From an archaeon (GTDB lineage: Archaea > Asgardarchaeota > Heimdallarchaeia > Heimdallarchaeales > Kariarchaeaceae), in contig JAJRQD010000109.1 in the NCBI GenBank assembly GCA_024280435.1, positions 1,879-65,878 of the forward strand: a stretch of 64,000 nucleotides of DNA. The letters are read 5' to 3'. How positions within the stretch are numbered: position 1 is the stretch's first letter; every line of letters begins with the position of its first letter. The notes beneath the pieces were generated by a model that did not search any database, was not told the origin of the DNA, and saw only the letters and a program-made list of their open reading frames with translations. The position numbers and the translations under genes are program-made. Positions 7,087 to 56,463 of the stretch are shown here, piece by piece.

Positions 7087-7198
7087 AAGAAAACACTGAT
7101 AAAATTATATTAATAAAACAGTAAATAATTGATATACAATATATATTGGACAGAGTTGTTCCTGTAATATATTAATAAATAGGAGTTCATATTATTTT

Positions 7199-7765
7199 AT
7201 GAACAGTGATAATGATGATTTCATATCACTAGATGATCTAGATGATATTTTAGATATAGATAGTGAAACAAATAATTTAGATATAGATAGTGAAACAGAT
7301 AATGAATTCAGAGAAATGATTGATAGACGTGATAAAATTGCATCCTCATTGAATGAAGAGGATGTATTGAGAATAGTTGCACAAAATATCTTAACTAATA
7401 ATGAATACCCCACTGCGATCAAACTAGAACAATTACTTACCACAATACCTGAAATATCTGAATTAAAACAGATTATTGATGATGTTTATCACGATAGACA
7501 AATAAGTAGATCAGAATACCGAACTCTTGTCGGTTTATTGGATAATAATTCTGAGAGTGAAATCCATCAAGTTATCCACAATGTATTACTTCATGATAGA
7601 ATTTCTATACAGACTAAACTTGAATTATTACTGATCTGTGTTCCAGAATTTGATGATCTGATCACTAGAATCGGTGATGAGCTTGAGAAGGATCATATCG
7701 GGGAAGATGATTATAACTATATTATTGACTGTCTGTGGAAACGGAGGAATAATCGAAGAAATTAA
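7199..7765 (+). CDS. Acidic hypothetical protein
   Basis: The 188-aa ORF has an Asp/Glu-rich N-terminus containing a duplicated LDIDSET(N/D)N and a basic C-terminal tail. Confidence 0.5.
   Translation: MNSDNDDFISLDDLDDILDIDSETNNLDIDSETDNEFREMIDRRDKIASSLNEEDVLRIVAQNILTNNEYPTAIKLEQLLTTIPEISELKQIIDDVYHDRQISRSEYRTLVGLLDNNSESEIHQVIHNVLLHDRISIQTKLELLLICVPEFDDLITRIGDELEKDHIGEDDYNYIIDCLWKRRNNRRN
7250..7303 (+). repeat. 27-bp tandem duplication inside a CDS
   Basis: ttagatatagatagtgaaaca(a/g)ataat occurs twice back to back with 1 mismatch. Confidence 0.85.
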
Positions 7766-11311: not shown

Positions 11312-11896
11312 TTAATTATCAGATATCAATTCAGTACCATTTTTAAGCAATTCTTTTGCTTCTTCAGGAATATCTTCAAATTTATTCTCACTGATATCTA
11401 ATTCCTTGAGATGATACATTGATTTTATTGATACTGGCAACTCACTGAGATTATTATTTGATATGACCAGTCTTTTCAATTTATTAAGATCAGATATATT
11501 ATCCGGAATTCTTTTCAATAAATTTTTGCTTAGGTTAATATCCTCTATCTCTTCTAACATTGTTATCTCATCTGGAATATGAGAAATCTGATTATTTGAT
11601 AAATTAAGTTTTTTCAGATTTTTCAGATTTTTAATAGTATCTGGAATTACAGCCAATTTCATTGCACTCAAATACAATTCAACTAGTTTATCATTCTCAA
11701 ATTTGTAATTCAGACCATAATTATACAGTTCATCTTTTCTCCAATCTGCATTGCCACCACGTAGCTCCATATCTTTCTCGATCAGATATTTATCATCCTG
11801 TAACCACAGCATGGTATAATGTAGATCTGGATCTGCATCAAGGTTCATTTTATTAACATCTGTAAGGAAATCAATCAGTATATCTTTATCATTCAT
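11312..11896 (-). CDS. Leucine-rich-repeat protein
   Basis: It has five LxxLxLxxNxL units, for example LKKLNLSNNQISHIPDEI, LKRLVISNNNLSELPVSI and LKELDISENKFEDIP. Confidence 0.85.
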   Translation of the reverse strand: MNDKDILIDFLTDVNKMNLDADPDLHYTMLWLQDDKYLIEKDMELRGGNADWRKDELYNYGLNYKFENDKLVELYLSAMKLAVIPDTIKNLKNLKKLNLSNNQISHIPDEITMLEEIEDINLSKNLLKRIPDNISDLNKLKRLVISNNNLSELPVSIKSMYHLKELDISENKFEDIPEEAKELLKNGTELISDN

Positions 11897-28669: not shown

Positions 28670-28909
28670 ATGGAATATAATAAATTCAACATTTATGAAT
28701 TAATAGTTGATAATAATGGGCAGATCAAGCTACCAGATGATATAATAAGCAGATTTAATATCAGAAGTGGTCAGAAACTTATAATGACATTGAAAGATGA
28801 TGAGTTGATCATTCTTCCGAAAATTGAGGATCCTATTTCTATGTTTGCTATGACTGCAAATAAGGATGAAATCAATGAATTTAAGGAATCAAAACTTGAT
28901 TTTGATTGA
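28670..28909 (+). CDS. AbrB/SpoVT/MazE-type DNA-binding protein
   Basis: QIKLPDDIISRFNIRSGQKLIMTLKDDELIILPK matches the swapped-hairpin barrel motif. There is no partner toxin gene nearby. Confidence 0.65.
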   Translation: MEYNKFNIYELIVDNNGQIKLPDDIISRFNIRSGQKLIMTLKDDELIILPKIEDPISMFAMTANKDEINEFKESKLDFD

Positions 28910-28930: not shown

Positions 28931-30268
28931 TCAAATTTTAAATAATTTGTTTCCTAGTTCCTCCAATATTTTATTTTCTTCTTCATTAACAAATTCTGAT
29001 TTTGGAATCTTGCTTGTGATATGATAACTTTCCTGGGCAAATTGTCTTAATCCTAACCTGAATCTTGCATCATCATTTGCAGATAACAGTATATACTTAA
29101 TATCTTTAATTTTATGAAATAATATCACACCATTGTCATGAGTTATAGTATCAATATCTCCTTTACCAGAAACCACCTCTTGAAGAAAGTTGGATAAAGC
29201 AACAACAAAACCAGATATTAATGTGAGTTTTTTCTCACTCTTATTCAAAGCTCTTTCATAAATTGGTAATTCATTTTTAACAATTATAATAAATTCAATT
29301 GCTTTTTTATCCGTTTTTATCTGACTAAACAATGTCTGAGATATATTAACCAAATTATTGATGTTAATATCAACTAATTCTAATATTTTTTTCATTATAT
29401 TTTTATCATCCATTTGAATTTCATTAATTATTTTTTGCCTATTTTCTTCAATTGCGTAATTTTCTAATAACGGAAAATCACTTATATACTTAACAAGTGA
29501 TTGATCAATAAAATCAACTGATAACCACTGTAGCATAAATAAGCTTGCTTTATAATTTTGCATAGCTTTATCTAGGTTTAAATTGTACAACTCAAAATAT
29601 GCTTTTATTACATTTAAATACATGGTTAACAATTTCTGGTCAAATTGATTTGCAAAAACTTCAAGATCAGAGATATATTTCATGACATTATTGTAAATAT
29701 ATTTTTCTCTTGACTGGAAGAATAAATTCATATTTAAAAAACAAAGAGACCTTATACCCTCTATAACATTCACATATTTGTTAATAAAATCATTTATTTT
29801 TGAACTTTCAGTAATATTAATCATTAGTTCTAATATCTCATCTTCATGTGGATGATTATCATAAATTGATAAATTTTTCTTAAGTAAGTTATTAGTAATT
29901 AAATCTTCTTTCTTTTTATTAAATATATCCAATTGATCTTCAATTAATTTTTCAAAAGAATCTTTATCAATTGGTTTGTAAACTACTTTATCGATTTTAG
30001 CATCATTAATTGCATTTACAACGAAATCAAGTTGCAGATCTGCACTCATTAGTATACGTCTAATTTCAGGAAATTTCTCTTTTATTTCAATTAATAGAGA
30101 TACCCCATCTATTTCTGGCATTGAATAATCAGACACCAATATCGCAATATCATTATCAAATAGAATTTTCATACAAGTTTCATAATCATTGGCAACAAAA
30201 ATATTCCAATTATCTTTATAAATTTTGTATAACATTTTAGTTATTATCTTCTCATCATCAATTATCAA
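28931..30268 (-). CDS. Response-regulator receiver fused to a helical linker and a C-terminal Roadblock/LC7 (MglB-like) domain
   Basis: The REC residues are intact (DDE, LVSDYSMP, ILMSA, YKPI). For the C-terminus see feature 29030..29305. The frame is open upstream to 30313 (..NVNVLIIDDE), so the start is uncertain (TTG at 30268 or ATT at 30286). Confidence 0.85.
   Translation of the reverse strand: MIIDDEKIITKMLYKIYKDNWNIFVANDYETCMKILFDNDIAILVSDYSMPEIDGVSLLIEIKEKFPEIRRILMSADLQLDFVVNAINDAKIDKVVYKPIDKDSFEKLIEDQLDIFNKKKEDLITNNLLKKNLSIYDNHPHEDEILELMINITESSKINDFINKYVNVIEGIRSLCFLNMNLFFQSREKYIYNNVMKYISDLEVFANQFDQKLLTMYLNVIKAYFELYNLNLDKAMQNYKASLFMLQWLSVDFIDQSLVKYISDFPLLENYAIEENRQKIINEIQMDDKNIMKKILELVDININNLVNISQTLFSQIKTDKKAIEFIIIVKNELPIYERALNKSEKKLTLISGFVVALSNFLQEVVSGKGDIDTITHDNGVILFHKIKDIKYILLSANDDARFRLGLRQFAQESYHITSKIPKSEFVNEEENKILEELGNKLFKI
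29030..29305 (-). other. Roadblock/LC7-like segment of the REC protein
   Basis: The sequence is KAIEFIIIVKNELPIYERALNKSEKKLTLISGFVVALSNFLQEVVSGKGDIDTITHDNGVILFHKIKDIKYILLSANDDARFRLGLRQF. It parallels MglB-type strand-strand-helix-strand-strand-helix order (compare ..VVFLVDKNGQLI....TSLASLTAGNVAAMGGLAKL......LYMTIV....LVVIFDN.TSLGLVRLRI). Confidence 0.55.
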
Positions 30269-30303
30269 TACGTTTACATTACGAATATAAATTCCCCCAA
30301 TAA

Positions 30304-30870
30304 TTAAAGCATATTATTTAGCATCATTTCTGTAATGCTTTTAAAAGCCGATTCAATATTTGAACAAGTTTTAGCACTTGTTTCAACATATTCTATATCA
30401 AAATGAGGAAAGTTTTTACCCCACTCCCTAAGTACATTAATATAATTCTCAATTTCTTCTTGCAAAATTTCTCTTGAACCATTATTTTCACATAGATCAA
30501 TTTTATTACCCACAATTAATAAGGGAACCATAAAATTATCTGTATTTTTCATATATTCTTCAATCCAATTTGGTATATTCTCAAAACTTGATTTACTAGT
30601 TAAATCATAAACTAGGATTAAACCAGAAGAATTCATATAATATTTATCCCTAACAATTGAAAACCTTTCTTGACCTGCTAGATCCCAAATTTGAAGAACT
30701 ACATTTTTATTGTCAACTTCAATAGCTTTTACAGCAAAGTCAGCACCTAAAGTAACTAGATATTCTTTATCAAAGTTTTGACCAAGATACCTCCTACGTA
30801 TTGATGATTTGCCAACATTTGCATCTCCCATTATTATTAATTTGAATATTGTTTTACTAGTGAAGTTCAC
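30304..30870 (-). CDS. Ras/Rab-like small GTPase
   Basis: The G motifs are G1 GDANVGKS, G2 TLGADF, G3 WDLAGQE, G4 GNKID and G5 ETSAK. There is no C-terminal prenylation Cys. Confidence 0.9.
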   Translation of the reverse strand: MNFTSKTIFKLIIMGDANVGKSSIRRRYLGQNFDKEYLVTLGADFAVKAIEVDNKNVVLQIWDLAGQERFSIVRDKYYMNSSGLILVYDLTSKSSFENIPNWIEEYMKNTDNFMVPLLIVGNKIDLCENNGSREILQEEIENYINVLREWGKNFPHFDIEYVETSAKTCSNIESAFKSITEMMLNNML

Positions 30871-31893
30871 ACTTTACTTATACAGAATTTTTCTTTAAAA
30901 CTTTTTATTATTTTAGGTTATTTTGATAAAAAAAAAGAAAACTGTAATTATTTTGACAAAAAAATTGTTTTATAAACAAATTAAATTTACCAAAGCATAA
31001 ATCAGATAATTATCACTAAAAGTATTATATTGAGTAAAATATTATCTTAAATTCATAAAGATAAAATATCCATAGAAATGAAGAATTGATTTTTCTTGTA
31101 ATTTAAAAATAATATCTGATATTATTTTTAATAGATCTCAATCTCCACGAATTTCATTTAATCCAGATGTAATATCACAGTATATTCCTGTGACCTTCTA
31201 ATTATTTGCTTATCTCTACAAACTATCTCATCAGATCATCTATAATTACCTTTGGTTCTATAATCCAAAATAATGTACTCATCCCTCTCCCATTGTCTTA
31301 GAGTGAATTTCGATACACATGCTAATTTTCATACTTGAACTATACTGATATCCAGATTTACATACCCAACTTTTGATATTATTTTGATTAATACCATCCC
31401 AATATCAGTGAAATGTACTTTTGAGTGGAATATTGGATAAATATCCATTTTTAATCGAAAAAACACATAATCTTAGTTTAGGAGGAAGCTCCTCCCAAAC
31501 AATGTTGTGAATCTTAGCAAATATACAGATCGCCACAATTAACCACCGCATACCTGTTTTAAGTCCTGAAAACTTGCGTTTAAGGATTTTTTTTTAATTT
31601 TGTTAATGAATTTATTGAGAACTAGAGGCTCTATTATTAGTGACATTAGTAATTATTAGTCATAGACTCTCTATCTATTAATATTTTGGGGACTATATGC
31701 AATAAGCAGTGAGTTTCTAAAATTTACAAATTTATGAACTGAAACGCTCATAATGCTTTAAGATAATTTTGGGAAATGCTTTATTTAATCTAAGTATATG
31801 ATTTAACATAATCTTAAATAAACTCATATTATTACACAAAATAATAGAAATTTTAGATATTGTTATTATATTTTAAAGATAAATAAAATAATT

Positions 31894-32457
31894 ATGAAAA
31901 ATATTATTCTAAAGCTAGTATTAATAGGAGATGGAAGAGTTGGAAAAACATCGATTCGTAAAAATTATATGGGTTATGGGTTCACAAAAAGTCATTTATC
32001 AACATTAGGTGCTGATTTTTCAGAAATATCAAATAAATTTAAATTTGGAAATGATGAAATTAAAGCTAAATTACAAATTTGGGATGTTGCAGGTCAAAAC
32101 AACTTTCAAAAAATAAGATTAAGATTTTTAACTAGAGCATCTGCAATCATATTAGTATATGATATAACAAATATGTCATCTTTTCAGAATTTACCAAATT
32201 GGCTAAAAGAAGTTTGGTCTGTGAATAAATCAAAAGATTTGCCCATATTGATACTAGGTAATAAAATTGATCTAGAAGAAGATAGGGAAGTTCCTTATAC
32301 TTTAGTTGAAAAATTTAAAAATGATCTAATTGATAAATTAAAAGAGAAAGTTGAGATAATTCATATTGAAACAAGTGCACTAACAGGTCAAAATATAAAA
32401 CAAGGTTTTGAAACAATCACTTTATCATTCTACAAGAATTTGTTAAAAACGCAATAA
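31894..32457 (+). CDS. Ras/Rab-like small GTPase
   Basis: The G motifs are G1 GDGRVGKT, G2 TLGADF, G3 WDVAGQ, G4 GNKID and G5 ETSAL. Confidence 0.9.
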   Translation: MKNIILKLVLIGDGRVGKTSIRKNYMGYGFTKSHLSTLGADFSEISNKFKFGNDEIKAKLQIWDVAGQNNFQKIRLRFLTRASAIILVYDITNMSSFQNLPNWLKEVWSVNKSKDLPILILGNKIDLEEDREVPYTLVEKFKNDLIDKLKEKVEIIHIETSALTGQNIKQGFETITLSFYKNLLKTQ

Positions 32458-32653: not shown

Positions 32654-35170
32654 TTACACATTTATACTTGGCTTATTATTAACGATAGGAATAAAAATGC
32701 TAAAAGTTGTACCAACGTGTTTTATACTATTAACAGAAATATTACCATTCCAATCTCTAATAATTCCATATACTGTTGATAATCCTAAACCTGTACCCTT
32801 TCCTGGTTCTTTAGTTGTAAAAAATGGTTCAAAAAGGAGAGGTAATTCATTTTCTTGAATTCCTATTCCGTGATCTTTTATCTGTAAAAGTAAATAATGA
32901 TTTTTGTTTTTCATTTCTGGAAAAACAAATTTACCAAATTCATTTTTAATTAATTCACTTCCTAAGTTTGAAACATTGAAATCATCATCAATTAGTACCT
33001 TTCGCACCTTTAGATCTATAATTCCACCTTGAGGCATAGAATCTTTTGCATTTAATACTAAATTCAAAATAACTTGTTCAAATTGTACAGGATCTCCATT
33101 TACAAATATATTTTCTTGAGATTGGTTTAATTCTAATACATACCTTTTACCTAGAAGTCTTCGAAGCATTGTACAAGTTTCATTAATAACTTCAAACACA
33201 TGAAATACCTTTGAATTTGTATCTCTTTTCTTACTGAAGTCCAGTAATTGTTTTGTAATTGAATTAGCTAACTTTACATTATTTTTTATTTCAATAACTT
33301 CTGCTTTAAGAGGACTATTTTTTGGTAGCTCATTTAACATATAATCTGCACACAGTGATATACCAGTTAAAATATTTTTATAATCATGTGAGATACCTCC
33401 AGCTAATCTACCAATAGCTTCCATTTTTTGAGATTGACGAAGTTGTTCTTCTATCATTTTTTCATTAGTAATGTCTTTTTGAACGGATAAATAGTTTACT
33501 ATTTTTCCTGATGAATCTACTATTGCAGATATTGAATTTGAAATCCAAAAATACTCACCATTTTTCTTTTTATTTTTCAATATACCTCTCCATTCTTTCT
33601 TATTTTTTATTTTACTGTATAAATCTTTATAGATTAATGAATTTGTAATTTCTGTGTTTAGAATATTTATATTCTTTCCCACAATTTCCCCATGAGAGTA
33701 ACCAGTTATCTCACAAAATTTAGGATTTACATACTCAACAATACCATTTATATCTGTAATAATTACAATACTTGGACTTTGTTCAACAGCTTTTATCAAT
33801 TTAGATAACTCTATTTTCTGTTTAGCTAACTTTTTCTGAATTTTTTGAATTTCAGTTTGGTTTCTTAAGGTTTTAATTCCAAAAGATAATGTTGAGGCAA
33901 AATTTTTTAGAAAATTAATTTCTTGTGTATCAAATACATTTTCTGCTGTTGTATACACTGAAAGTACACCAATTGTTAAGTCATTTATTTTTAATGGTAA
34001 CAATATTGATGAGTAATTAATTGGTATTTTTCCAATATTTTTATTTTTTTCAATTAGCTTATCAAGATAAATATCTCTTTGAATTATCATTTCTCCTTTT
34101 TTTAATACTGTTTCAATAATATCAATATTATATCGATATAATACATTTTTAAAATTCATTAGAGATTGAGCTGTAGTATCATTTTTAATTGCCTCAATTG
34201 TAAAGTTATCCCCATTACAATTATTCGAATAACCAATCCATGCAATTTGATAACCTCCTGTACTTGTAAGTATATTACATATTTTTGGTAAAATTATTTT
34301 TTCATCTGTCTCATAAAATAAAATGTCCATAGAACCTATTATACAATTTAAAATTCGATTCATTCTTTGAATCGATGTAGATTGTAACAAGATTTTTCGT
34401 TCTATACTTTTTCTTATTCTAATGTCTTGAATTATAGCTGTAAATAAAATCTTTTTATCAATAATTATTTCAGAAACTGAAATTGATATATCAATTAGTT
34501 GATTATTTTTCTTCAATCCTTTTACTTCAATTATTTTCCCTTTAAAAGGTCCCATGTTTGATTGTTTATAATTAAAAAGAGAGAGTTTATGTTGATCATG
34601 ATAGTTATCAGGTATTAAAACTAATATATTTTTTCCTAACAACTCATCTTTTGTATATCCAAATAATTCCAATGCTGATTTATTAATATCTTTAATAATA
34701 CCTTGTTTATTTATTGTGATTACACCATCGATTAGAGATGACAAAATTGTTTTATATTTTTCCTCACTTTCTAAAAGTTGCTTTCTTGTAATTGTTAATT
34801 GTTTTGATTTATCTATATTATTAATAATTCTTTTAATTGTTAATGGTAATTTTTTAATGTGTTTTGATGACTTTAAAATATAGTCTTCCAAACCAGATTT
34901 CATAGCTTCAACAGCTATTTCCTCACTTCCTGTTGCAGTATACATAATAACAGGACAATTTGGATGTTTTTGTTTTATTTCTTTTAAAATATAGATACCA
35001 TCACTCCATTGTAATTGATAATCAGTTATTACAATATCAAAATTATAATTATTATTATATTTATGAAATAACTCTATATTATTTATTTCAATAATATTTA
35101 GATTAGATAAATTCCTATCAAGTTCACGTTTAATTAAGAAGCGATCATCAGGATTATCATCTATAACCAA
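32654..35170 (-). CDS. Hybrid sensor histidine kinase (REC-PAS-GAF-PAS/PAC-HisKA-HATPase_c)
   Basis: It has an N-terminal REC (VIDDNPDD, ITDYQLQ, YTATG, ILKS) and two PAS cores (DGVITINKQGII.., SIVIITDINGIVEYVN..). It also has the H-box GGISHDYKNIL and the N, G1 and G2 boxes (LNLVLNAKD, DHGIGI, GTGLGLS). Confidence 0.9.
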   Translation of the reverse strand: MVIDDNPDDRFLIKRELDRNLSNLNIIEINNIELFHKYNNNYNFDIVITDYQLQWSDGIYILKEIKQKHPNCPVIMYTATGSEEIAVEAMKSGLEDYILKSSKHIKKLPLTIKRIINNIDKSKQLTITRKQLLESEEKYKTILSSLIDGVITINKQGIIKDINKSALELFGYTKDELLGKNILVLIPDNYHDQHKLSLFNYKQSNMGPFKGKIIEVKGLKKNNQLIDISISVSEIIIDKKILFTAIIQDIRIRKSIERKILLQSTSIQRMNRILNCIIGSMDILFYETDEKIILPKICNILTSTGGYQIAWIGYSNNCNGDNFTIEAIKNDTTAQSLMNFKNVLYRYNIDIIETVLKKGEMIIQRDIYLDKLIEKNKNIGKIPINYSSILLPLKINDLTIGVLSVYTTAENVFDTQEINFLKNFASTLSFGIKTLRNQTEIQKIQKKLAKQKIELSKLIKAVEQSPSIVIITDINGIVEYVNPKFCEITGYSHGEIVGKNINILNTEITNSLIYKDLYSKIKNKKEWRGILKNKKKNGEYFWISNSISAIVDSSGKIVNYLSVQKDITNEKMIEEQLRQSQKMEAIGRLAGGISHDYKNILTGISLCADYMLNELPKNSPLKAEVIEIKNNVKLANSITKQLLDFSKKRDTNSKVFHVFEVINETCTMLRRLLGKRYVLELNQSQENIFVNGDPVQFEQVILNLVLNAKDSMPQGGIIDLKVRKVLIDDDFNVSNLGSELIKNEFGKFVFPEMKNKNHYLLLQIKDHGIGIQENELPLLFEPFFTTKEPGKGTGLGLSTVYGIIRDWNGNISVNSIKHVGTTFSIFIPIVNNKPSINV

Positions 35171-35377: not shown

Positions 35378-36367
35378 TCAATTTGGAACCATGCATTTTG
35401 ATAATTCAATCCAAAAAATAGAATATTCAGATGGAACAGATTCCACACCAAACCTTCCATTCATTCTTTCAATTCCTTTTTTAACTATTGAAAGACCTAT
35501 CCCTGTGCCCGGATATTGCTCTTCACTGTGTAGTCTTTCAAACACGTTAAATATTTTTTCAAAGTTTTTTTCCTCTATACCTATACCATTATCCTGTATA
35601 TTGAGTCTAACAAAATTGGGTTTATCTTCACTCCAGATATTTATTTTAGGTCTGTCTTTATTAGCACTGAATTTGATTGCATTTCCTATGAGATTAGCAA
35701 TTATTTTATCTAATAATGTGTTACTTCCATAAACACATCTAACTGGTAATTCTAATTTAATAGAAACATTATTTTTTATTATACTTTCTATATTCTCTCT
35801 TATTGCATCTCTGATTAATATTTTCAAATCTAAATTTATAAATCTTAATTCTTTATAACCAATTTTATTGTATAAAAGAAGATCTTGTATCAATTTATCC
35901 ATTTTTATAACTGAGTAATTAATACGGTAAAGCATTTGTTTTCCATAAATATCTAAAACATCAGAATAATCTTCATTAATAGCGTTTGCATAGCCTTGAA
36001 TTGATCTTAATGGTGCTTTTAAATCATGAGTAACTGAAAAAACAAATTCAATGAAATCTTGATCTTTCATTTCTAATTCATTATTTTGTATTTTAATTCT
36101 ATTATCTATTTTAACAGCATCTAAGTTTAATCTATCAATTTTATTTATTAATCCTAATTTTGTATAGTATTCCTTTACAAGAATGATAATCGATAGAATA
36201 CTAAAAGTAAATGAAAATAATGATAGGTTATTAACAATTTCATTAAATGTTTGATAACTAAAAAATAACATACGGATAAAACCGATCAGAGCAACAAGTA
36301 AAACAATATTAAAAATCACAATTTTATCTATTTTAGTTAGAATAAATCTCATACAAATTAATTTCAA
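35378..36367 (-). CDS. Membrane-bound histidine kinase
   Basis: It has two N-terminal TM helices, the H-box FSVTHDLKAPL, and LIGNAIKF, DNGIGI and GTGIGLS. Confidence 0.9.
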   Translation of the reverse strand: MKLICMRFILTKIDKIVIFNIVLLVALIGFIRMLFFSYQTFNEIVNNLSLFSFTFSILSIIILVKEYYTKLGLINKIDRLNLDAVKIDNRIKIQNNELEMKDQDFIEFVFSVTHDLKAPLRSIQGYANAINEDYSDVLDIYGKQMLYRINYSVIKMDKLIQDLLLYNKIGYKELRFINLDLKILIRDAIRENIESIIKNNVSIKLELPVRCVYGSNTLLDKIIANLIGNAIKFSANKDRPKINIWSEDKPNFVRLNIQDNGIGIEEKNFEKIFNVFERLHSEEQYPGTGIGLSIVKKGIERMNGRFGVESVPSEYSIFWIELSKCMVPN

Positions 36368-36418: not shown

Positions 36419-38182
36419 TTACTTTCTTATTTTCATTTTCAGATCAGATACCTGAAATGAGAAATACTTGTTGAATAATAATGAATATTCACCATTTTTC
36501 ACTATTAATTCATCATGTGTACCTTCTTCTGATAGTTTACCATCTGATAGTACAATAATTTTGTCACTGTGCAGTATTGTGGTGAGTCTATGTGCAATAA
36601 CAATTGAAGTTCTATTTTCAATAAGATTAGATATTCCCTCCTGTATTTTTGCCTCTGTATAAAGATCAAGAGAAGCAGTAAATTCATCTAGTATCAGTAT
36701 TTTTGGATCTGCAAGTAATGCACGGGCAAGAGAGATCATCTGTCTCTGGCCCTGGCTGAGATTTGCTCCCTCTTCATTCAGTACTGTGTGGATACCATCT
36801 GGTAATGTATTCAAAAACTCAGTTGCCTGTACCGCATCCAATGCTTTGTGTACATCATCAATACTTGCATCTGGTTTTGCCATCAATAGATTATCTAGTA
36901 TAGTACCTGTGAACAGAAATATATCCTGGGCAACATATGCGATATTTTTTCTGAGAGAATTTAGATTATATTCATCAATATTATTATTATCAATTAATAT
37001 TTCACCTGTATACCCTCCATAGAATTTCATCAACAAAGAGACTATTGTTGATTTACCAGCTCCAGTAGCTCCAATTAGTGCCACAGTATTTCCAGCTTCA
37101 ATTACAAATGATAGATCTGATAAGACTGATTCACCACTGATATATTCAAAATTAAGATTTTTGAATTCAATCCTACCCGAAATATCATCTGCTATCAATC
37201 CATCATGTTTAATTACCTCCTGCGTATCATCATCAGCCATGATTGATAATAATCTCTCAAGTGCTGCAAATGATGTTTGAAACTGATTATAAGCACGTGC
37301 TATCTGGCTAATTGGACTGTACAGATAACTTTGCAGTAGAATAAACAGATATAACAATGTTATGCTGATATTATCAATAGTTGTGGCCACATATATCAGT
37401 ATAATTATCCCGAGGTGCTTCAGGAAATCCTGAATTGGCCCAACTGCAAATACTGCAAGTGCGCGGGTCTTTGAAGCATTGTATGTCTCTTCATTAAGAT
37501 ATTTGAATTTGTTGAAATTCTCTGCTTCTCTACCAAATGTCTTTGAAACACTCAATGAAGACATTGTCTCTCCAAAATTAGCATTGACAATTGCAATCTT
37601 GGATCTCCATCTCATTGATATTCTTCGTTGTAATTTTCTCATCATTATAACTGCAATAAATAATACTGGAACAAGCACTGTTGATGCAAATGTGAGTTTG
37701 ATATCTATTACCATCATAGTTATGAATACACCCACAAATACAAAGAACTGAGCGAAGGTATTGGATAGTCTCTCTGCAGAGCTGGCTAATTCATTGGAAT
37801 CATTAACAATTCTTGACACAAGTTTTCCAGATATTGCATTATCAAAGAATGTGATATTATTATTCAATACCTTCTCAAAAGCATCTACTCGTAATTTGTG
37901 GATGAATCTAGAATTTACAATTGCAATAATCATAGATTGTGACATCTGTGCAAAGAACATGAGGATCAACATAAAGCCATAGAGCGAGCTGTAAAACAAT
38001 ATATTATCTATTGGTCCATTGATTTTTAATAGATCCAGTGCAACTTTCAGAAGTAGTGGTCCTGCAACAGATACCACCACATTAGCAATTATCACTATTG
38101 ATAGAAAGAATAGCATCAGTTTCTCATCTCTTAGCCAGATCCATAGCTGTCCCCATAGATTTTTCTCGCTTATATCAGTCAT
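36419..38182 (-). CDS. ABC exporter half-transporter (TMD-NBD); consensus Walker B, non-canonical signature
   Basis: It has Walker A GATGAGKST, signature LSQGQRQ and Walker B ILILDE. Its start overlaps the upstream stop (ATGA). Confidence 0.9.
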   Translation of the reverse strand: MTDISEKNLWGQLWIWLRDEKLMLFFLSIVIIANVVVSVAGPLLLKVALDLLKINGPIDNILFYSSLYGFMLILMFFAQMSQSMIIAIVNSRFIHKLRVDAFEKVLNNNITFFDNAISGKLVSRIVNDSNELASSAERLSNTFAQFFVFVGVFITMMVIDIKLTFASTVLVPVLFIAVIMMRKLQRRISMRWRSKIAIVNANFGETMSSLSVSKTFGREAENFNKFKYLNEETYNASKTRALAVFAVGPIQDFLKHLGIIILIYVATTIDNISITLLYLFILLQSYLYSPISQIARAYNQFQTSFAALERLLSIMADDDTQEVIKHDGLIADDISGRIEFKNLNFEYISGESVLSDLSFVIEAGNTVALIGATGAGKSTIVSLLMKFYGGYTGEILIDNNNIDEYNLNSLRKNIAYVAQDIFLFTGTILDNLLMAKPDASIDDVHKALDAVQATEFLNTLPDGIHTVLNEEGANLSQGQRQMISLARALLADPKILILDEFTASLDLYTEAKIQEGISNLIENRTSIVIAHRLTTILHSDKIIVLSDGKLSEEGTHDELIVKNGEYSLLFNKYFSFQVSDLKMKIRK

Positions 38183-39921
38183 TTACTCACCTCCAACTCA
38201 GGTAATTCATAGGTATGTTCAAATAATTTTCTATATTCAAGAGATGTACGTAGTATCTCATGATGAGGCCCATTAGCAACGATACTATTGTTATCAAAAA
38301 CAATAACTTTATCGGAATCTGAAATTATTGATAATCTATGAGTTATAATCACTGAGGTTCGGGTTTTCAGTACTGTTTTGATTGCACTCTGTATCTGATA
38401 CTCAGTCTCGGCATCAAGAGCAGAACTTGCATCATCCATTATCAGTACTGATGGATCAATGATCAGAGCACGTGCAATAGCTATTCTCTGCTTCTGACCA
38501 CCAGACAGTGTAATTCCTCTCTCTCCAACCAGTGTATCATATCCTTCATTGAATGATTGTATGAATTTATCAGCCTTGGCCATCTTTGCAGCATCAATAA
38601 TCTCATCCATAGTTGCATCAGGTCTACCAAATGCAATATTACCACTTACTGTATCTGAGAAAAGAAATATCTCCTGTTCAATACTAGATATCTGTGATCT
38701 CAGAGTATTACTGTCATACTCACCTATTTTTGTTCCATTTATCAGTATCTCTCCCTGCTGTGGATCATACAATCGCAGTAATAGTTTGATAAAAGTTGAT
38801 TTACCAGATCCTGGTCCACCGACAATTGCAATAGTCTCACCTTTTTTAATCTCAAGATTGATATCTTTCAATGCCCATTCTCTATCATCACTATATCTGA
38901 AAAAAACATTTTTGAATTCAATACTTTCCTCTATTCCAGTAAATTCTTTATTTCCAAATTTAAGATGAGGTATATCATCCTCCATCATTTCCTGTAATCT
39001 CTGTGCAGCTGCAATCATTCTGACAGTCATATTGACAATTCTTTTGATTCTGCGGCTCATAAACTGTATCAAGGTGATTAGACCTATGAACACTACAAAT
39101 TCACCCAGTGAGAGGTCATTGATTGAGATCAAATAAACTCCATAGACCACTGTCAAAGCAAGTACAATATTTATCAATAAAGATGGTGGATAGAAAGCCG
39201 ATAGCATACCAAATTTTCTCACATGGCCTGCATGTTTCTCTGAAATCTGGGAGAATTTATCCACACCTATTTTCTCAGCATTATAACTTTTTAATTCATT
39301 TATACCTCTGAATAATTCATGTGAATTCACACTTAACTCACCAAATACCTCACGAAGTGCAATACTCTCAGGCCCAAGTTTTTTTCCATAGTAATATACA
39401 AGTATCACATAGATTGGGAATGATACAAATAGTAAAATTGATAATTTCCAATTTATATAAATAAATACTGCAAGTGAGGTGACAAGCAGAGTAGCAATCT
39501 GTATTAAAATTCTTATTGCAGGAGAAAGACCGATATTAATTGCACGTGTATCTCCAGTTGCCCGTGCCATCAAATCACCTATTTTTATACCATCATGATA
39601 ATGTAATGGTCTAAACTGTAATGCTTGGTATAAGTCTGCGGTCATATCTGTGGTCACTCTATGGGCATGTAATTCATTGATTACTGCAACTATATAGAAT
39701 ACAATTGCCTGTACTGTGACCAGAATTAAAAGATAGATTATCCAATCAATTATCTCAGAGATGGCTGCGTTTGTGACAAACAAATCAATTATTTTTCCAA
39801 TTATCAAATTAGGACTTGAAAATAGTATAATCTCAATTACAGATCCTACAACAGTGATGAAAAATAAAATTGGGTACCTATTCAGATAACTAACTATCCA
39901 TTTAATTTCCTTGTTTTTCAC
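38179..39921 (-). CDS. ABC exporter half-transporter (TMD-NBD); Walker B Glu replaced by Asp
   Basis: It has Walker A GGPGSGKST, signature LSGGQKQ and Walker B VLIMDD (Asp in the catalytic Glu position). Confidence 0.9.
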   Translation of the reverse strand: MKNKEIKWIVSYLNRYPILFFITVVGSVIEIILFSSPNLIIGKIIDLFVTNAAISEIIDWIIYLLILVTVQAIVFYIVAVINELHAHRVTTDMTADLYQALQFRPLHYHDGIKIGDLMARATGDTRAINIGLSPAIRILIQIATLLVTSLAVFIYINWKLSILLFVSFPIYVILVYYYGKKLGPESIALREVFGELSVNSHELFRGINELKSYNAEKIGVDKFSQISEKHAGHVRKFGMLSAFYPPSLLINIVLALTVVYGVYLISINDLSLGEFVVFIGLITLIQFMSRRIKRIVNMTVRMIAAAQRLQEMMEDDIPHLKFGNKEFTGIEESIEFKNVFFRYSDDREWALKDINLEIKKGETIAIVGGPGSGKSTFIKLLLRLYDPQQGEILINGTKIGEYDSNTLRSQISSIEQEIFLFSDTVSGNIAFGRPDATMDEIIDAAKMAKADKFIQSFNEGYDTLVGERGITLSGGQKQRIAIARALIIDPSVLIMDDASSALDAETEYQIQSAIKTVLKTRTSVIITHRLSIISDSDKVIVFDNNSIVANGPHHEILRTSLEYRKLFEHTYELPELEVSK

Positions 39922-40277: not shown

Positions 40278-40868
40278 ATGCGTTTAAACAAAAATTACCA
40301 CCAATATATTAAAGATACAGTTTACATGTTAACATGGTTGTCTAAAGTTTCAAATAAAACAAAAATTGTGTTAATTGGCGATTCGAGGGTGGGAAAAACA
40401 TCTCTTAGACGGCAGTATATGGGTGATTCGTTCAGAGGTACGTATAGTGCCACTATGGGGGCAGAATTCAGTGTCAAGAAATTAAAAGATAATATCATAA
40501 CAATCTATGATCTTGCAGGAGATCCAAAATCCAAAATATTCCGAATGCAGTATTATCCGGGTACTCAGGGAGTATTAATGGTTTTTGATGTTAATTCTAG
40601 GAATTCATTTGAAAATATACGTGTTTGGATTGACGAGATCAGAGAAAATATCAAATCTCAGCTTGTCATATTTATTCTTGGTAATAAAATAGATCTTTTT
40701 GATAATTCATTGGATCCAGTAACCGAGGTTGAGGCGTATAAACTGAGCAAAGAGCTCGAAGAAGAATTGGGGTGCTCTGTATCCTATTTATCTACCTCTG
40801 CCTTAACAGGTCATAATGTAGATGTTGCGTTTTCTAAAATACTTGCTGAGATCCAATTCAGATATTAA
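40278..40868 (+). CDS. Ras-like small GTPase lacking the catalytic Gln (G3 = DLAGD)
   Basis: The G motifs are G1 GDSRVGKT, G2 TMGAEF, G3 YDLAGDP, G4 GNKID and G5 STSAL. An alternative start is the ATG at 40326. Confidence 0.85.
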   Translation: MRLNKNYHQYIKDTVYMLTWLSKVSNKTKIVLIGDSRVGKTSLRRQYMGDSFRGTYSATMGAEFSVKKLKDNIITIYDLAGDPKSKIFRMQYYPGTQGVLMVFDVNSRNSFENIRVWIDEIRENIKSQLVIFILGNKIDLFDNSLDPVTEVEAYKLSKELEEELGCSVSYLSTSALTGHNVDVAFSKILAEIQFRY

Positions 40869-40958
40869 ATACATTTATTAATAAAAAATATTAAAAAATA
40901 ATGCAATAAAAAATTTACAGCTATTATCTTTATTAATTGAAAGGTATAAAAGATTAAT

Positions 40959-41576
40959 ATGGAGATTTCTGAATTAAGGGGGTTATTAATTGGCTCAAAA
41001 GCAACCGGAAAGACCACTTTCATAAGACGTTTATCTAGAACTAAAAAGAGTGAGTATGGTTTGACTATGAAATCAACAGATTACAATATTGAATTACAGA
41101 TTCCAAAAAGAGATGGAAGTGTAGTTTCAGTATCGGTAATAATCTCAGATACTCCTGGACAGAGGGATTTTGCATATCAATCTTTCTCAGATGGTATAAA
41201 AACTGATTTTATTGTGATGTTCTATGAGACAAATACACTGGATACTTTTAATCAGTTATCAATTTGGCTTGCTGATATTAAAAATCTAGGTATAATAAAA
41301 AATCGTAAATTACCAATATTCTTTGTAGGTAATAAAATTGATCTCAAGGATGATAGAATGATTTCAGATCAGTATATAGAGGCATTTTTGGATAGTTTCA
41401 AAAAAAGATACAATTGGGATGCACCGGTACAGCATTATTTTATCTCTGCAATTGATTCCAGCACTTTAGATATACTAACAGTACTAAGAAGGATGTTTGT
41501 GATAACTTATAAGCATATGAAGGCATTTAATATTCAACCAACACAGGAAATTTATAGATTAGGAGGATTTACATGA
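40959..41576 (+). CDS. Divergent small GTPase (Roc/Arf-like G3)
   Basis: The G motifs are G1 GSKATGKT, G3 DTPGQ, G4 GNKID and a G5-like ISAID. Its stop overlaps the LRR gene start (ATGA). Confidence 0.75.
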   Translation: MEISELRGLLIGSKATGKTTFIRRLSRTKKSEYGLTMKSTDYNIELQIPKRDGSVVSVSVIISDTPGQRDFAYQSFSDGIKTDFIVMFYETNTLDTFNQLSIWLADIKNLGIIKNRKLPIFFVGNKIDLKDDRMISDQYIEAFLDSFKKRYNWDAPVQHYFISAIDSSTLDILTVLRRMFVITYKHMKAFNIQPTQEIYRLGGFT

Positions 41577-42379
41577 ATTTAGATAATTTGGATCCAGAGA
41601 CTGTGTCAATAATTAAAAAAGAGATACATGGAATGACTTATCTTAATCTTGGAGGGTATAAACTTGATAAGATACCAGATTTTGTATTTGATATGGATAA
41701 TCTTGGTTATCTTGACTTATCCTACAACAATTTATCAGAGATAAATGAGATCCCATCTGATTTGATCTATCTATCAATCAGATACAATAATATCAAATAT
41801 TATGATTTTGCAAATAAAGGTTTGAAAAGAATTATTTTAGAGGGAAACAGAATAAATGAAGTACCACTGATCAATTCTGATAACTTACTTGCGATTAATT
41901 TATCATTTAACAAGCTGGAGCAGTTTCCAGAATTAAAAACTAAAAATCTAATTTTACTCAATTTACATGGAAATAGAATTTTTCATGTGCCAGATGATTT
42001 GTGTAGACTGAGTAATCTAGTCAAATTATATTTGGGTTTCAATAAAATAGAGAGATTACCGGATTGTTTTGGAGAACTTCAGGATCTCAAATTTTTCAGT
42101 ATTCAATCTAATAATTTACTTGAGATACCTGCGAGTACATTCAAGATATTCAGGCGAATACATTTTGATTTTTCAAATAATTATGAGTTGAGAACACCTT
42201 TGAATGATATTAATTCTATGTCTCTGGTGAATTACGGTGTGGAAGCACCTTCTATCAATGTATATTCAGATCCCAAGTTAAGAGAGAATACTAGAAAAAG
42301 ATCCTCTGACAATGTAGAGTTTCCATGGGAGAAGGAGATCGCAATCAAAGAAGAATTATACAGAAGAATCATGATCTAA
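41573..42379 (+). CDS. Leucine-rich-repeat protein, translationally coupled to the preceding GTPase
   Basis: There are about 8 LRRs, for example LGYLDLSYNNLSEI, LLAINLSFNKLEQFP and LVKLYLGFNKIERLPDCF. AGGAGG lies 6 nt upstream of the ATG. Confidence 0.85.
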   Translation: MNLDNLDPETVSIIKKEIHGMTYLNLGGYKLDKIPDFVFDMDNLGYLDLSYNNLSEINEIPSDLIYLSIRYNNIKYYDFANKGLKRIILEGNRINEVPLINSDNLLAINLSFNKLEQFPELKTKNLILLNLHGNRIFHVPDDLCRLSNLVKLYLGFNKIERLPDCFGELQDLKFFSIQSNNLLEIPASTFKIFRRIHFDFSNNYELRTPLNDINSMSLVNYGVEAPSINVYSDPKLRENTRKRSSDNVEFPWEKEIAIKEELYRRIMI

Positions 42380-45224: not shown

Positions 45225-46505
45225 ATGAGTACTGTGGAGGAACAATACAACAAATTACTGCTTGAGAGTAAGTTACTGCAGGAGAATAATCTGAATAGAT
45301 ATTTGGAGAGATATAAGGATAGTTTCATTGATAATCTTAATAAGGGAATTGTTGATCTATCAGATAGAAATTTGAGTATTATTCCCATGTCATTATTAGA
45401 GATGGATATCAGAGAACTTAATCTCAGGAATAATAACTTTGAGATATTACCGGATAGTTTTGGAAAATTTAAAAATCTTGAGAAACTGGATCTCGAAAAT
45501 AATCAACTCACCACCTTACCAGATAGTTTTGGACAACTGCAAGAACTCTGGAAACTAGATCTCGGTAGTAACCAATTCACCACATTACCGGATAGTATTG
45601 TAGAGTTAGAAAATCTAAAGAAACTATATCTCAATAATAATAAACTGAGTACATTACCAGATAGTATTGGACAACTGCAGAATCTTGAGAGACTATATCT
45701 CGATGATAATCAACTCACCACAATCCCGGACAGTATTGCACAACTGCAGAAACTTGAGAGACTAGATCTCTGGGGTAATCAACTCACCACATTACCGGAT
45801 AATATTACACAATTGAAAAATCTGGAATTGCTAGATCTCAGTAATAATCAACTCACCACAGTACCGGATAGTATTGGACAACTGCAAAAACTTAGAGAAC
45901 TATATCTCAGTAATAATCAACTCACCACAGTACCGGATAGTATTGTACAACTGCAAAATCTTAAGAACCTAAATCTAAAGAATAACCAATTCACCACATT
46001 ACCCGAAAGTATTGCACAACTACAGAAACTTGTGAGACTATATCTCAGTAATAATCAACTCACCACAATCCTGGACAGTATTTCACAATTGAAAAATCTG
46101 GAATTGCTAGATCTCGAGTATAATCAACTCACCACATTACCTGATAGTATTGTAGAGTTAGAAAATCTAAAGAAACTATATCTCAGTTATAATATACTGA
46201 CCACAATACTGGACAGTATTGGGCAATTGAAAAAACTTGAGATACTGCACCTTATTAGAAATCAATTAACATCATTACCGGATAGTTTTGGACAACTGCA
46301 AAATCTTGCAGAACTGAATCTAAGGGAAAATCAATTGACCACATTACCAGATAGTTTTGTAGAGTTAGAAAATCTTAGGGAATTAAATCTCGAGAATAAT
46401 CAACTGAGCTCAAGACCAGATTACATTGATGATTTGAATTATCTTGAGGAATTATATCTAGATGGTAATAAATTCTATACAGATAAATATTTACCTGATA
46501 TTTAA
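45225..46505 (+). CDS. Leucine-rich-repeat protein with about 16 consecutive 23-residue repeats
   Basis: The repeat consensus is LxxLxLxxNQLTTLPDSIGQLQN, the same type as Roco/SHOC2-like LRRs. Confidence 0.9.
   Translation: MSTVEEQYNKLLLESKLLQENNLNRYLERYKDSFIDNLNKGIVDLSDRNLSIIPMSLLEMDIRELNLRNNNFEILPDSFGKFKNLEKLDLENNQLTTLPDSFGQLQELWKLDLGSNQFTTLPDSIVELENLKKLYLNNNKLSTLPDSIGQLQNLERLYLDDNQLTTIPDSIAQLQKLERLDLWGNQLTTLPDNITQLKNLELLDLSNNQLTTVPDSIGQLQKLRELYLSNNQLTTVPDSIVQLQNLKNLNLKNNQFTTLPESIAQLQKLVRLYLSNNQLTTILDSISQLKNLELLDLEYNQLTTLPDSIVELENLKKLYLSYNILTTILDSIGQLKKLEILHLIRNQLTSLPDSFGQLQNLAELNLRENQLTTLPDSFVELENLRELNLENNQLSSRPDYIDDLNYLEELYLDGNKFYTDKYLPDI
45400..46440 (+). repeat. Array of 69-bp coding repeats (LRR units), some nearly identical
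   Basis: 45577-45633 and 46129-46185 differ at 1 of 57 nt. Confidence 0.85.
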
Positions 46506-47131: not shown

Positions 47132-48280
47132 TTACAGATTTGAGTAACTCTCAAATTTCAATAGAATACTGTGAGATTCATTAATTTTATTATGTAGCTG
47201 TATCATCTTATCATTGATCATACTAAGAGAATTATTGATCTCATTAGAAGTGGCAGCCACCTCTTCACTTGATGCGGAGGTCTCTTCTGATAGGCTTGAA
47301 ATATCCTCGATAGCAATTCTGAAATCATTGAACATACCTTTGATAGTGATTGAAATCTCGTTGACAACATCTTTTATTCTGTTTGCAGCCTTGTTTGATT
47401 CATCTGATAATTTTCTTACATTCTCTGCAACAACTGCAAAGCCTCTTCCATAATCACCTGCACGTGAAGCCTCTATTCCTGCATTAAGTGCAAGTACATT
47501 TGTCTGGAAAGATATATCTCCAACTCTCTTGCTCTCCTCAGTGATCATTTTTATAATATCATCAAGGGTCTGTCCACTTGCATTGAATCTTTCTGATACT
47601 TGATTCAGCATATCAGATTGCTGTGAAGAGCCATTTGCCATACTAGTTGTGGTGGCAGATATCTCCTCAATACTTGCAGTAGCCTCTTCTGATCTTGCAG
47701 TTAATTCATCTGATGTACTTTTCACATTCAATGACATATTATACAACTCACCCAGTAGGTTCTGTACTGAGATGATCATCTCATTGAAAAAATTTGCAAT
47801 GTTACCCAAAACAGGGTCATTGATTATCTTGGAATTCTCTATCTTCTCAAATTCTCCATGCTTGAATTTAATAGAAACATGATTTATCTCATCTAAAAAT
47901 TCATCCATCACATGAAATGTGGCATAAAAACCCCCAAGCCAGACGATCAGAGATGGGAAAAATGTAGGTATCCACAGTTTTAAAGCATCTGATGTGATCA
48001 CAGGATTGTTTATTCCTGTATACTCATCTATTTTACCAAAAGTTAATGCAGAGATTGTGACATTTGTAATATGAAATGTTAATTTGAAACGAAAGTCATC
48101 AGTACCAATAGTTCTGTACATATATGCAAATATAACCACTGTTATTAGCCCTGTGGAGATAAAATGATTTATCCAATTATACAGATTAATTCCATAGAAT
48201 GATCCATTTATTGATGAACTGATGATAATGTAGATATAGAAAAATGGAGCAACTAGCTCCATGTAATTATACCATTTCAT
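47132..48280 (-). CDS. Methyl-accepting chemotaxis protein-like transducer
   Basis: It has four N-terminal TM helices. The conserved signalling hairpin is present: [37 protein letters not shown]. Confidence 0.85.
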
Positions 48281-52426: not shown

Positions 52427-52428
52427 AA

Positions 52429-56460: not shown

Positions 56461-56463
56461 TGT

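Follow-up and report, generated by a model that had tools for sequence, protein, structure and literature searches.

We analyzed a stretch of 64,000 nucleotides from an archaeon of the Kariarchaeaceae, within the Heimdallarchaeia (GenBank assembly GCA_024280435.1, contig JAJRQD010000109.1, positions 1,879 to 65,878; hereafter the window, with a GC content of ~30%), and focused on a response regulator encoded together with two Rab-like small GTPases and two histidine kinases. The regulator joins a receiver (REC) domain to a helical middle region and to a C-terminal domain predicted to be of the longin type. Its relatives also tend to be encoded close to small GTPases, which recur as the same two orthogroups. 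We consider it fairly probable, although far from certain, that these genes make up a conserved heimdallarchaeial module, in which a phosphorelay acts through the response regulator on a longin platform serving the co-encoded Rab-like GTPases.

Part of this locus had been noticed in a first-pass annotation made from the sequence alone, which reported two open reading frames (ORFs) on the same minus strand, a small GTPase and a protein of 445 aa, separated by 35 nt. Both ORFs, their spacing, and the length of the second (28931-30268) were recovered from the sequence, and the two genes are probably part of one transcript. Two histidine kinases, one of them hybrid, had been placed 2-5 kb away and were found 1.8-5.5 kb from the gene of this first GTPase (GTPase A). 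A second GTPase gene (GTPase B), positioned between the GTPase A gene and the two kinases, was absent from that annotation. The features of the module are the following:

28931-30268, minus strand: regulator gene (445 aa, TTG start at 30268)
28934..29302, minus strand: predicted C-terminal longin domain of the regulator, residues 323-445, 123 aa (AlphaFold2 (AF2), Foldseek, and sub-threshold Pfam matches)
29324..29938, minus strand: middle helical region of the regulator, similar to tetratricopeptide repeats (TPR), residues ~111-315 (AF2 helices at low confidence; profile alignment)
29939..30268, minus strand: REC domain of the regulator, residues 1-110 (Pfam Response_reg)
30269..30303, minus strand: spacer of 35 nt between the stop codon of GTPase A and the TTG start of the regulator
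30304..30870, minus strand: gene of small GTPase A, Rab-like, orthogroup A (188 aa, GTG start)
30871..31893: non-coding AT-rich spacer of 1,023 bp between the divergent GTPase genes, presumed to be a promoter region
31894..32457, plus strand: gene of small GTPase B, Rab-like, orthogroup B (187 aa; divergent from the GTPase A gene)
32654..35170, minus strand: histidine kinase, REC-PAS-GAF-PAS-HisKA-HATPase (838 aa; Pfam)
35378..36367, minus strand: histidine kinase with a hydrophobic N-terminus, HisKA, and HATPase_c (329 aa; Pfam)

The start of the regulator required a correction. The public gene call (P0001) has 434 aa and begins at an internal ATG, which results in the loss of the acidic DD pair of the receiver. 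The homologue P0002 was likewise annotated from an internal ATG and also lost the pair (window 30235-30268; L001 7585-7642). In both cases, TTG or GTG starts further upstream give it back. We regard the longer N-terminus as genuine because of the in-frame upstream sequence in P0002 (…ILFIDDQ…) and of the alignment of 25 relatives.

With this start, residues 1-109 of the regulator match Pfam Response_reg (E=1.7e-13, 51.1 bits for a cutoff of 30.2), and receivers of the PDB match the domain with E-values down to 1.7e-10. The active site is complete (D4, D5, D47, S75, and K98). The first-pass annotation had described an intact REC domain with its phospho-acceptor in the motif LVSDYSMP, and both the Pfam match and the full set of active-site residues agree with this, the acceptor being D47. 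Among the 25 aligned members of the family, 19 match Response_reg. The phospho-acceptor site is complete in 17 of them (once the start of P0002 is corrected) and degenerate in five, and the REC domain is absent in the remaining three. The helical linker of ~200 aa proposed to follow the receiver was also recovered, as residues ~102-315 are predicted to be all-helical in a full-length AF2 model; this model was computed on three sequences, has a mean predicted local distance difference test score (pLDDT) of 52, and was used for secondary structure only, not for domain packing. The profile of the helical region aligns with proteins combining TPR and longin domains (TPR-longin proteins), in the part located before their longin domain, hence the name TPR-like.

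The nature of the C-terminal domain is central to the reading of the module. Roadblock and longin domains have a common core fold, and the superfold builds platforms that regulate GTPases. The strand and helix order of this domain had been said to parallel that of Roadblock/LC7 proteins such as MglB, and an AlphaFold model had been suggested as a check. We modeled residues 300-445 with AF2 on the 25-sequence alignment and obtained a domain of the Roadblock/longin superfold (pLDDT 82.7, predicted TM-score (pTM) 0.77), but of the longin type. The order of its elements is β-β-α-β-β-β-α-α, which is the longin order and is the same in the independent full-length model (strands E and helices H at E25-32, E35-41, H46-66, E75-78, E81-88, E91-97, H102-119, and H130-144). 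Roadblock domains differ from longin domains by an additional N-terminal helix and by having one C-terminal helix at most (PMC10933270). The Roadblock order, α-β-β-α-β-β-β with the N-terminal helix packed on the sheet, was not found in the model: upstream of the first strand there is merely a 5-residue helix with a pLDDT of ~60, and downstream of the fifth strand there are two confident helices. Hence, the assignment to the superfold was right, while topology, profile searches, and structural matches all argue against the Roadblock/MglB type.

When the model was compared with the PDB using Foldseek, longin proteins ranked highest, among them Bet5 of the TRAPP complex (3cue_C, E=4.6e-5). Chains of TRAPPC1/sedlin (2j3t_C, 2j3w_A/C, 7b6d_C/E) were matched with TM-scores (TMq) of 0.56-0.63 and root-mean-square deviations (rmsd) of 3.2-4.2 Å. 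The longin matches overall had TMq of 0.56-0.63 and rmsd of 3-4.5 Å, and comprised the longin domain of VAMP7, AP sigma, zeta-COP, MON1A-CCZ1 (9lol_B), and Fuzzy (9rs8_A). Roadblock, LAMTOR, and LC7 chains were retrieved with E-values from 1e-4 to 1e-3. Among them, the short dynein LC7 and LAMTOR4/5-type chains had TMq of 0.32-0.43 and rmsd of 9-10 Å, and the full-length LAMTOR chains had TMq of up to ~0.5. These matches are weaker than the longin ones, and are consistent with a common superfold only.

Sequence profiles were searched as well. Robl_LC7 had no match in the window regulator at E<=1, and none in the 25 aligned C-terminal domains at E<=10. The only Pfam families matched by several of these 25 domains were Fuz_longin_1, the first longin domain of FUZ/MON1/HPS1 (five members, best E=9e-4), and Intu_longin_1, its counterpart in INTU/CCZ1/HPS4 (four members, best E=0.04), below the gathering score in both cases. 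Fuz_longin_1 also matched three related TPR-longin proteins (best E-value 1.3e-4). When the C-terminal alignment was used as a profile against the sequences of the PDB, no match was found at E<=10. From the AF2 model, the Foldseek matches, and the sub-threshold Pfam matches, the C-terminal domain is predicted to belong to the longin branch of the superfold.

The GTPases were analyzed in the same way. The description of GTPase A as a canonical small GTPase with intact G1 to G5 motifs holds, as these are seen in the translation (G1 GDANVGKS, G2 T in LVTLGADF, G3 WDLAGQE, G4 GNKID, and G5 TSAK) and the protein matches Pfam Ras (E=2.1e-46). GTPase B matches the same family (E=5.6e-41), and both have the catalytic Gln of DxxGQ. 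The best 60 matches of GTPase A among PDB sequences are all Rab or Ypt proteins (E down to 4e-35), including Rab43, Rab35, Rab1, Rab8, Ypt7, Ypt1, and the Thorarchaeota Rab 7ezb. Judging from their sequences, these GTPases are Rab-like and not MglA-like. Neither has a C-terminal Cys for prenylation (GTPase A ends in EMMLNNML and GTPase B in YKNLLKTQ); eukaryotic Rabs are anchored to membranes through geranylgeranyl modification (PMC10933270). GTPase A is 43-49% identical to the GTPases adjacent to the regulator in four related loci (L001, L002, L004, and L005), and for GTPase B the identity is 59% to the GTPase encoded downstream of the L002 regulator and 45% to that of L001. The GTPases neighboring the regulators form two recurring orthogroups, A and B.

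We then searched for relatives of the regulator among 1.84 billion representatives, using HMMER with a profile of its non-receiver part. This retrieved 73 proteins at E<=1e-3 and 32 at E<=1e-10, and the full architecture of 430-480 aa is common to about 25-30 clusters; a word-indexed search with the full-length regulator found two true relatives only. The more distant matches are proteins of 600-700 aa that carry TPR repeats in their N-terminal part and end in the same longin domain, as well as a REC-longin protein of 264 aa. Members are recorded under names such as "response regulator [Candidatus Heimdallarchaeota archaeon]", "FixJ family two-component response regulator" (JGI), and [quoted passage not shown]. 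The closest homologue is on a contig of a Candidatus Heimdallarchaeota metagenome-assembled genome, and a scan of a genome collection with a 3-sequence alignment recovered that contig only. The taxonomic range of the family is based on a few source-named records, all of them from Heimdallarchaeota.

To study the gene neighborhoods of the family, we retrieved the contigs of eleven members and considered them with the window. Counting the latter, 11 loci are informative. The loci other than the window are the following, with the regulator and, where available, its identity to that of the window in brackets:

L001 (P0002, 37%): a GTPase immediately upstream, divergent, and another 145 nt downstream on the same strand; a kinase and a REC-PAS kinase upstream
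L002 (P0003, 35%): a GTPase upstream that overlaps the regulator by 4 nt and a second 65 nt downstream; contig end
L004 (P0013, 34%): a GTPase 220 nt upstream, divergent; contig end
L015 (P0015, 30%): two GTPases directly downstream; contig end
L005-7 (P0016, 37%): a GTPase 2.4 kb downstream; one kinase overlapping the regulator by 4 nt, one upstream, and a hybrid kinase downstream
L016 (P0021, 30%): five GTPases within 12 kb, the nearest 157 nt upstream; a hybrid kinase 127 nt downstream
L017 (P0022, 36%): a GTPase 284 nt upstream, divergent; an adjoining TPR-longin protein; kinases downstream
L011 (P0026, 26%): a type-B GTPase 84 nt downstream, in three pieces; a kinase 58 nt upstream
L008 (P0019): no GTPase and no kinase within 6-8 kb
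L013 (P0033): no GTPase and no kinase within 6-8 kb
L009 and L010: contigs too short, outside the informative set

A small GTPase is encoded at most 3 kb from the regulator in nine of the 11 informative loci (window, L001, L002, L004, L005, L015, L011, L016, and L017), with regulators 26-37% identical to that of the window. A lack of conservation of the GTPase adjacency in relatives had been named beforehand as a refuting outcome, and the adjacency turned out to be conserved. Histidine kinases adjoin the regulator in six of the eight loci with enough flanking sequence (window, L001, L005, L011, L016, and L017). The REC-PAS-GAF-PAS kinase of the window is 45-48% identical along its length to its equivalent in L001, and the core of the 329-aa kinase is 42% identical to HK1 of that locus. 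As the GTPases and the kinases have matching counterparts, the five-gene block is syntenic between two loci whose regulators are 37% identical.

How often would such an arrangement occur by chance? There are four Ras-like ORFs in the 64-kb window, and at this density a random gene would have a GTPase no more than 3 kb away with a probability of ~0.19-0.34. The binomial probability of finding nine of 11 loci by chance is then P = 1e-5 to 2e-3, a range that is weakened by the loci not being phylogenetically independent. Since the regulator family is conserved and the adjacency recurs between regulators with only 26-37% identity, we do not attribute the arrangement to chance.

Some of these loci call for a comment on the partners of the regulator. 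The TPR proteins that adjoin the module in L017 (2953-4959) and L016 (12648-13343) end in the same longin family (E=3e-14 and 3e-6, respectively); no such TPR-longin paralogue was found in the window. Their location beside the module in two loci fits longin hetero-dimer platforms, and they are possible hetero-dimer partners. In L011, the type-B GTPase gene (6780-7437) is made of two pieces in the same frame, with one stop codon between them, and of a third piece in another frame. The regulator P0026 is present on 24 contigs, and the break was inspected in L011 only. Pseudogenization, recoding, or an assembly artefact could account for the broken gene.

How might the module work? The histidine kinase with the hydrophobic, probably membrane-embedded N-terminus and the REC-PAS-GAF-PAS kinase would feed the response regulator by phosphorylating D47. 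The output of the regulator would be its TPR-like helical region and its longin domain, and not DNA binding. Phosphorylation of receivers commonly changes the oligomeric state or the exposure of the output. Phosphorylation of D47 may thus alter the oligomeric state or dimerization of the regulator, or the exposure of its longin domain. The latter would dimerize to form a platform that binds GTPase A and/or GTPase B and sets their nucleotide state. What the analysis shows is the structure of the genes, their domains, the prediction of a longin fold, the Rab-like character of the GTPases, and the conserved synteny with GTPases and kinases; that the proteins bind each other, which one regulates which, and what phosphorylation does are inferred. 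The closest structural relatives of the domain are GTPase-binding subunits of Rab exchange factors, which supports the platform reading together with the conserved linkage to the GTPases.

Concerning the activity of the regulator, characterized longin-Rab pairs (TRAPP, Mon1-Ccz1) are exchange factors. For this reason, we rank a role as an exchange factor for guanine nucleotides (GEF) first, as the best single guess, if not quite an even bet. Binding as an effector or a scaffold, without catalysis, comes second and is a possibility to be kept in mind. A role as GTPase-activating protein (GAP) or GAP co-factor, considered because longin GAP complexes exist, seems rather unlikely, and the absence of any direct link to the GTPases even less likely. 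These gradings are subjective estimates and include alternatives that are also discussed as rival explanations below. A more specific proposal is that both co-encoded Rab-like GTPases are served by the regulator as an exchange factor gated by phosphorylation, or as a platform switchable between GEF and GAP; it is tentative, and we consider it less likely than not.

Several observations weigh against the scheme. The best TM-scores in the Foldseek search are only ~0.6, and the profile matches to longin families are all under the Pfam thresholds. The roles of GEF, GAP, and effector fit the sequence alike. Members with a degenerate receiver (five of the 25) still have GTPase neighbors, e.g., P0003 in L002, and phosphorylation is therefore not universally required. 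Two loci, L008 and L013, have neither a GTPase nor a kinase nearby. Finally, Heimdall-type genomes are rich in small GTPases, so that some adjacency is expected by chance, and the relatedness of the loci, mentioned above, lowers the weight of the recurrence.

The alternative that best survives is that the regulator is an effector or a scaffold, whose longin/TPR part binds the GTP- or GDP-bound GTPase and leaves nucleotide turnover unchanged. It might then integrate the state of the GTPase with the phosphorelay or, conversely, be localized by the GTPase. Synteny indicates a functional link and not its direction, TPR-like regions are typical protein-binding scaffolds, and the members with degenerate receivers retain their GTPase neighbors. 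The RomR-RomX pair of Myxococcus has itself been reinterpreted as an effector of MglA-GTP, and not a GEF, in the portion of a recent report that deals with it (PMC13408092). The closest structural matches of the domain include, however, catalytic Rab-GEF platforms (TRAPP core, Mon1-Ccz1), and we regard a purely non-catalytic regulator as conceivable but unlikely.

The model of the first-pass annotation, in which the C-terminal domain is an MglB-like Roadblock whose GAP activity on the neighboring GTPase is controlled by phosphorylation, seems to us improbable. It draws on the common core fold, on the Roadblock, LAMTOR, and LC7 structures among the Foldseek matches, on a distant TPR-longin relative with a sub-threshold Robl_LC7 match (P0053, E=0.0028), and on the conserved GTPase adjacency. 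Eukaryotes also have GAP complexes that contain longin domains, FLCN-FNIP, GATOR1, and C9orf72-SMCR8 being given as such in the relevant portions of two papers (PMC10933270; PMC12290439). Yet, neither the window regulator nor any of the 25 aligned members matches Robl_LC7 even at E<=10, the N-terminal helix of Roadblock is absent from the topology and two helices are present at the C-terminus, and the Roadblock structures rank below the longin ones (TMq 0.32-0.43, or ~0.5 for LAMTOR, versus 0.56-0.63). In addition, the GTPase is Rab-like with the usual DxxGQ, and the repositioning of catalytic residues that MglB exerts on MglA would lack an obvious substrate. As the domain is of the longin type and the GTPase Rab-like, the analogy with an MglB-type GAP finds no particular support.

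The idea that the adjacency is incidental, the longin domain being a GTPase-independent protein or membrane module (SNARE-like or adaptor-sigma-like, for instance) in genomes where GTPase genes are frequent, could invoke the Foldseek matches to the VAMP7 longin domain, AP sigma, and zeta-COP, the four Ras-like genes of the window, and the two members without a GTPase neighbor, but it is very improbable in view of the GTPases within 3 kb in nine of 11 loci, the recurrence of the same two orthogroups, the 4-nt overlap between GTPase and regulator in L002, and the binomial P of 1e-5 to 2e-3.

We now compare the candidate phosphorelay-driven longin platform with known systems. Liu et al. catalogued Asgard fusions between longin and two-component domains (bioRxiv 10.1101/2020.10.19.343400; Nature 2021), and the portion of their text on these proteins proposes that eukaryote-type regulators are wired to His-Asp signaling (bioRxiv 10.1101/2020.10.19.343400). 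These "NPRL2-like longin domain" fusions resemble our regulator in joining a longin domain to two-component domains in Asgard archaea, and the architecture of the regulator is probably a member of the catalogued class. Hence, the bare REC-longin architecture is not new. As far as the entry itself goes, it consists of one sentence and a figure panel, with no experiments and no specific GTPase genes stated. Moreover, these fusions were called NPRL2-like, whereas the present family has sub-threshold matches to the first longin domain of MON1/FUZ and CCZ1/INTU. Pfam NPR2 matched none of the 25 members, and no GATOR1 chain was among the top 50 Foldseek matches.

Another precedent is NitrOD3, an output domain of thaumarchaeal response regulators that is related to Roadblock/LC7 according to HHpred, as given in the section of Galperin et al. 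2018 that presents it (PMC5847659). It is also an output domain of archaeal response regulators, but in another phylum and related to Roadblock, and that section mentions no association with GTPases (PMC5847659). The first-pass annotation was not aware of a characterized protein with the two functions fused. Given the fusions of Liu et al. and NitrOD3 (PMC5847659), such proteins had already been listed, so the novelty of the fusion does not stand; what stands is that none of them is experimentally characterized in the parts of these sources that describe them.

The eukaryotic Rab GEFs built on longin domains (the TRAPP core with Bet5/Trs23 or TRAPPC1/C4, Mon1-Ccz1, Fuzzy-Inturned, and HPS1-HPS4) share with the regulator the longin fold, being its best structural match, the sub-threshold Pfam signal of a first longin domain, and Rab-like partner GTPases. 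Among them, tri-longin GEFs carry three consecutive longin domains per subunit, and their first longin domains pair in a heterodimer that catalyzes nucleotide exchange on Rabs. The regulator has one (residues 323-445), the rest being REC and helices. It differs further from these GEFs in that a receiver and a TPR-like region are joined to the longin domain, and in that its GTPases are devoid of prenylation sites. No TRAPPC3/Bet3 partner was detected near the module.

Links between small GTPases and two-component systems are an established theme in prokaryotes: MglA is linked to the response regulators RomR, FrzS, and AglZ, and operons of Group 3 MglA include a receiver-like protein (PMC4316618; PMC13343842; PMC13621833). 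The MglA/MglB/RomR-RomX circuit of Myxococcus has, like the module, a small GTPase of the Ras superfamily, a protein of the Roadblock/longin superfold, and a receiver protein, RomR (PMC4316618). There, however, receiver and Roadblock domains reside on different proteins, the GAP MglB is of the Roadblock type, and MglA belongs to a distinct GTPase family, whereas here a longin-type domain is fused to the REC domain and the GTPases are Rab-like. Membership in the MglA/MglB system was considered and rejected on the lack of Robl_LC7, the longin topology, the Foldseek ranking, and the Rab-like GTPase. The actinobacterial conservon (CvnA kinase, CvnB Roadblock, CvnC, and CvnD GTPase) has no response regulator (PMC4316618). 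It relies on an MglB-type Roadblock, a GTPase of the MglA group, and CvnC, while in the module the REC is covalently fused to the longin domain; no Robl_LC7 and no CvnC-like protein were found among the Pfam-scanned neighbors of the module.

In our literature search, we found no description of the REC-TPR-longin family itself, of its sequence signal of the Mon1/Fuz type instead of the NPRL2 type, or of its conserved clustering with two orthogroups of Rab-like GTPases and with kinases. A defined kinase-regulator-GTPase module with a conserved linkage to GTPases thus appears to be undescribed.

Rab-, Arf-, and Rag-like GTPases number in the dozens in Asgard archaea, and so do Roadblock or longin proteins; the module offers an entry point for matching such GTPases with their regulators. 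Tran et al. observed that the GTPase genes of the cultured Lokiarchaeon MK-D1 are generally outside the operons with Roadblock, longin, and TRAPPC3 genes, a layout that makes it hard to match GTPases with their GAPs and GEFs (PMC10933270). The module is a conserved exception to this pattern, with a specific longin protein, two Rab-like GTPases, and probable kinases. Because it names these proteins, the hypothesis can be tested with recombinant ones. If true, it would mean that prokaryotic phosphorelays had been connected to GTPase switches of the eukaryotic type before there was any eukaryotic signaling, and it would provide a handle on the function of Asgard small GTPases. Should the narrower proposal of a phosphorylation-gated GEF also be true, a His-Asp relay would directly drive a Rab/longin switch in the archaeal lineage closest to eukaryotes. 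The module would then be a living intermediate towards Rab activation of the Mon1-Ccz1/TRAPP type, and would include the first GTPase of Asgard archaea for which both a regulator and an input signal are assigned.

The spacer between the divergent GTPase genes (30871-31893) is longer than its equivalent in L001, which is of ~150 nt only. We found in it no stop-to-stop frame of more than 62 codons, no ORF with a start codon reaching 60 aa, no Rfam match, and no similarity to the related loci; gene remnants and repeats were sought as well. The sole feature that turned up was a near-perfect palindrome of 29 nt at 31103-31131.

Other genes flank the module. On the side of the regulator, a 79-aa ORF similar to MazE/AbrB (SpoVT-AbrB fold; 28670-28909, plus strand) is convergent with the regulator gene, with 21 nt between its end and the stop codon of the latter. 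The kinase end is flanked by a pair of genes for ABC exporters of the type with fused membrane and ATPase domains (36419-39921, minus strand). A similar pair adjoins the regulator homologue in L013 (1751-5466), a locus without GTPases or kinases. A second pair of Ras-family GTPase genes is found at 40278-40868 and 40959-41576, and the latter is overlapped by 4 nt by the gene of a leucine-rich-repeat (LRR) protein (41573-42379). These GTPase and LRR genes (40278-42379) may be a split Roco-like module. More LRR proteins are encoded at 45225-46505 and 11312-11896. No che genes turned up in the scan of the window ORFs. A methyl-accepting chemotaxis signaling domain is present in the protein encoded at 47132-48280 (minus strand), and such a protein is also found near the regulator homologue of L013. 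Lastly, three consecutive giant ORFs of 1281, 1343, and 1442 aa occupy positions 48581-60792 (minus strand). They carry FG-GAP repeats, bacterial TSP3 repeats, and an N-acetylmuramoyl-L-alanine amidase domain, and the GC content of their region is 35-38%, versus ~30% in the remaining window.

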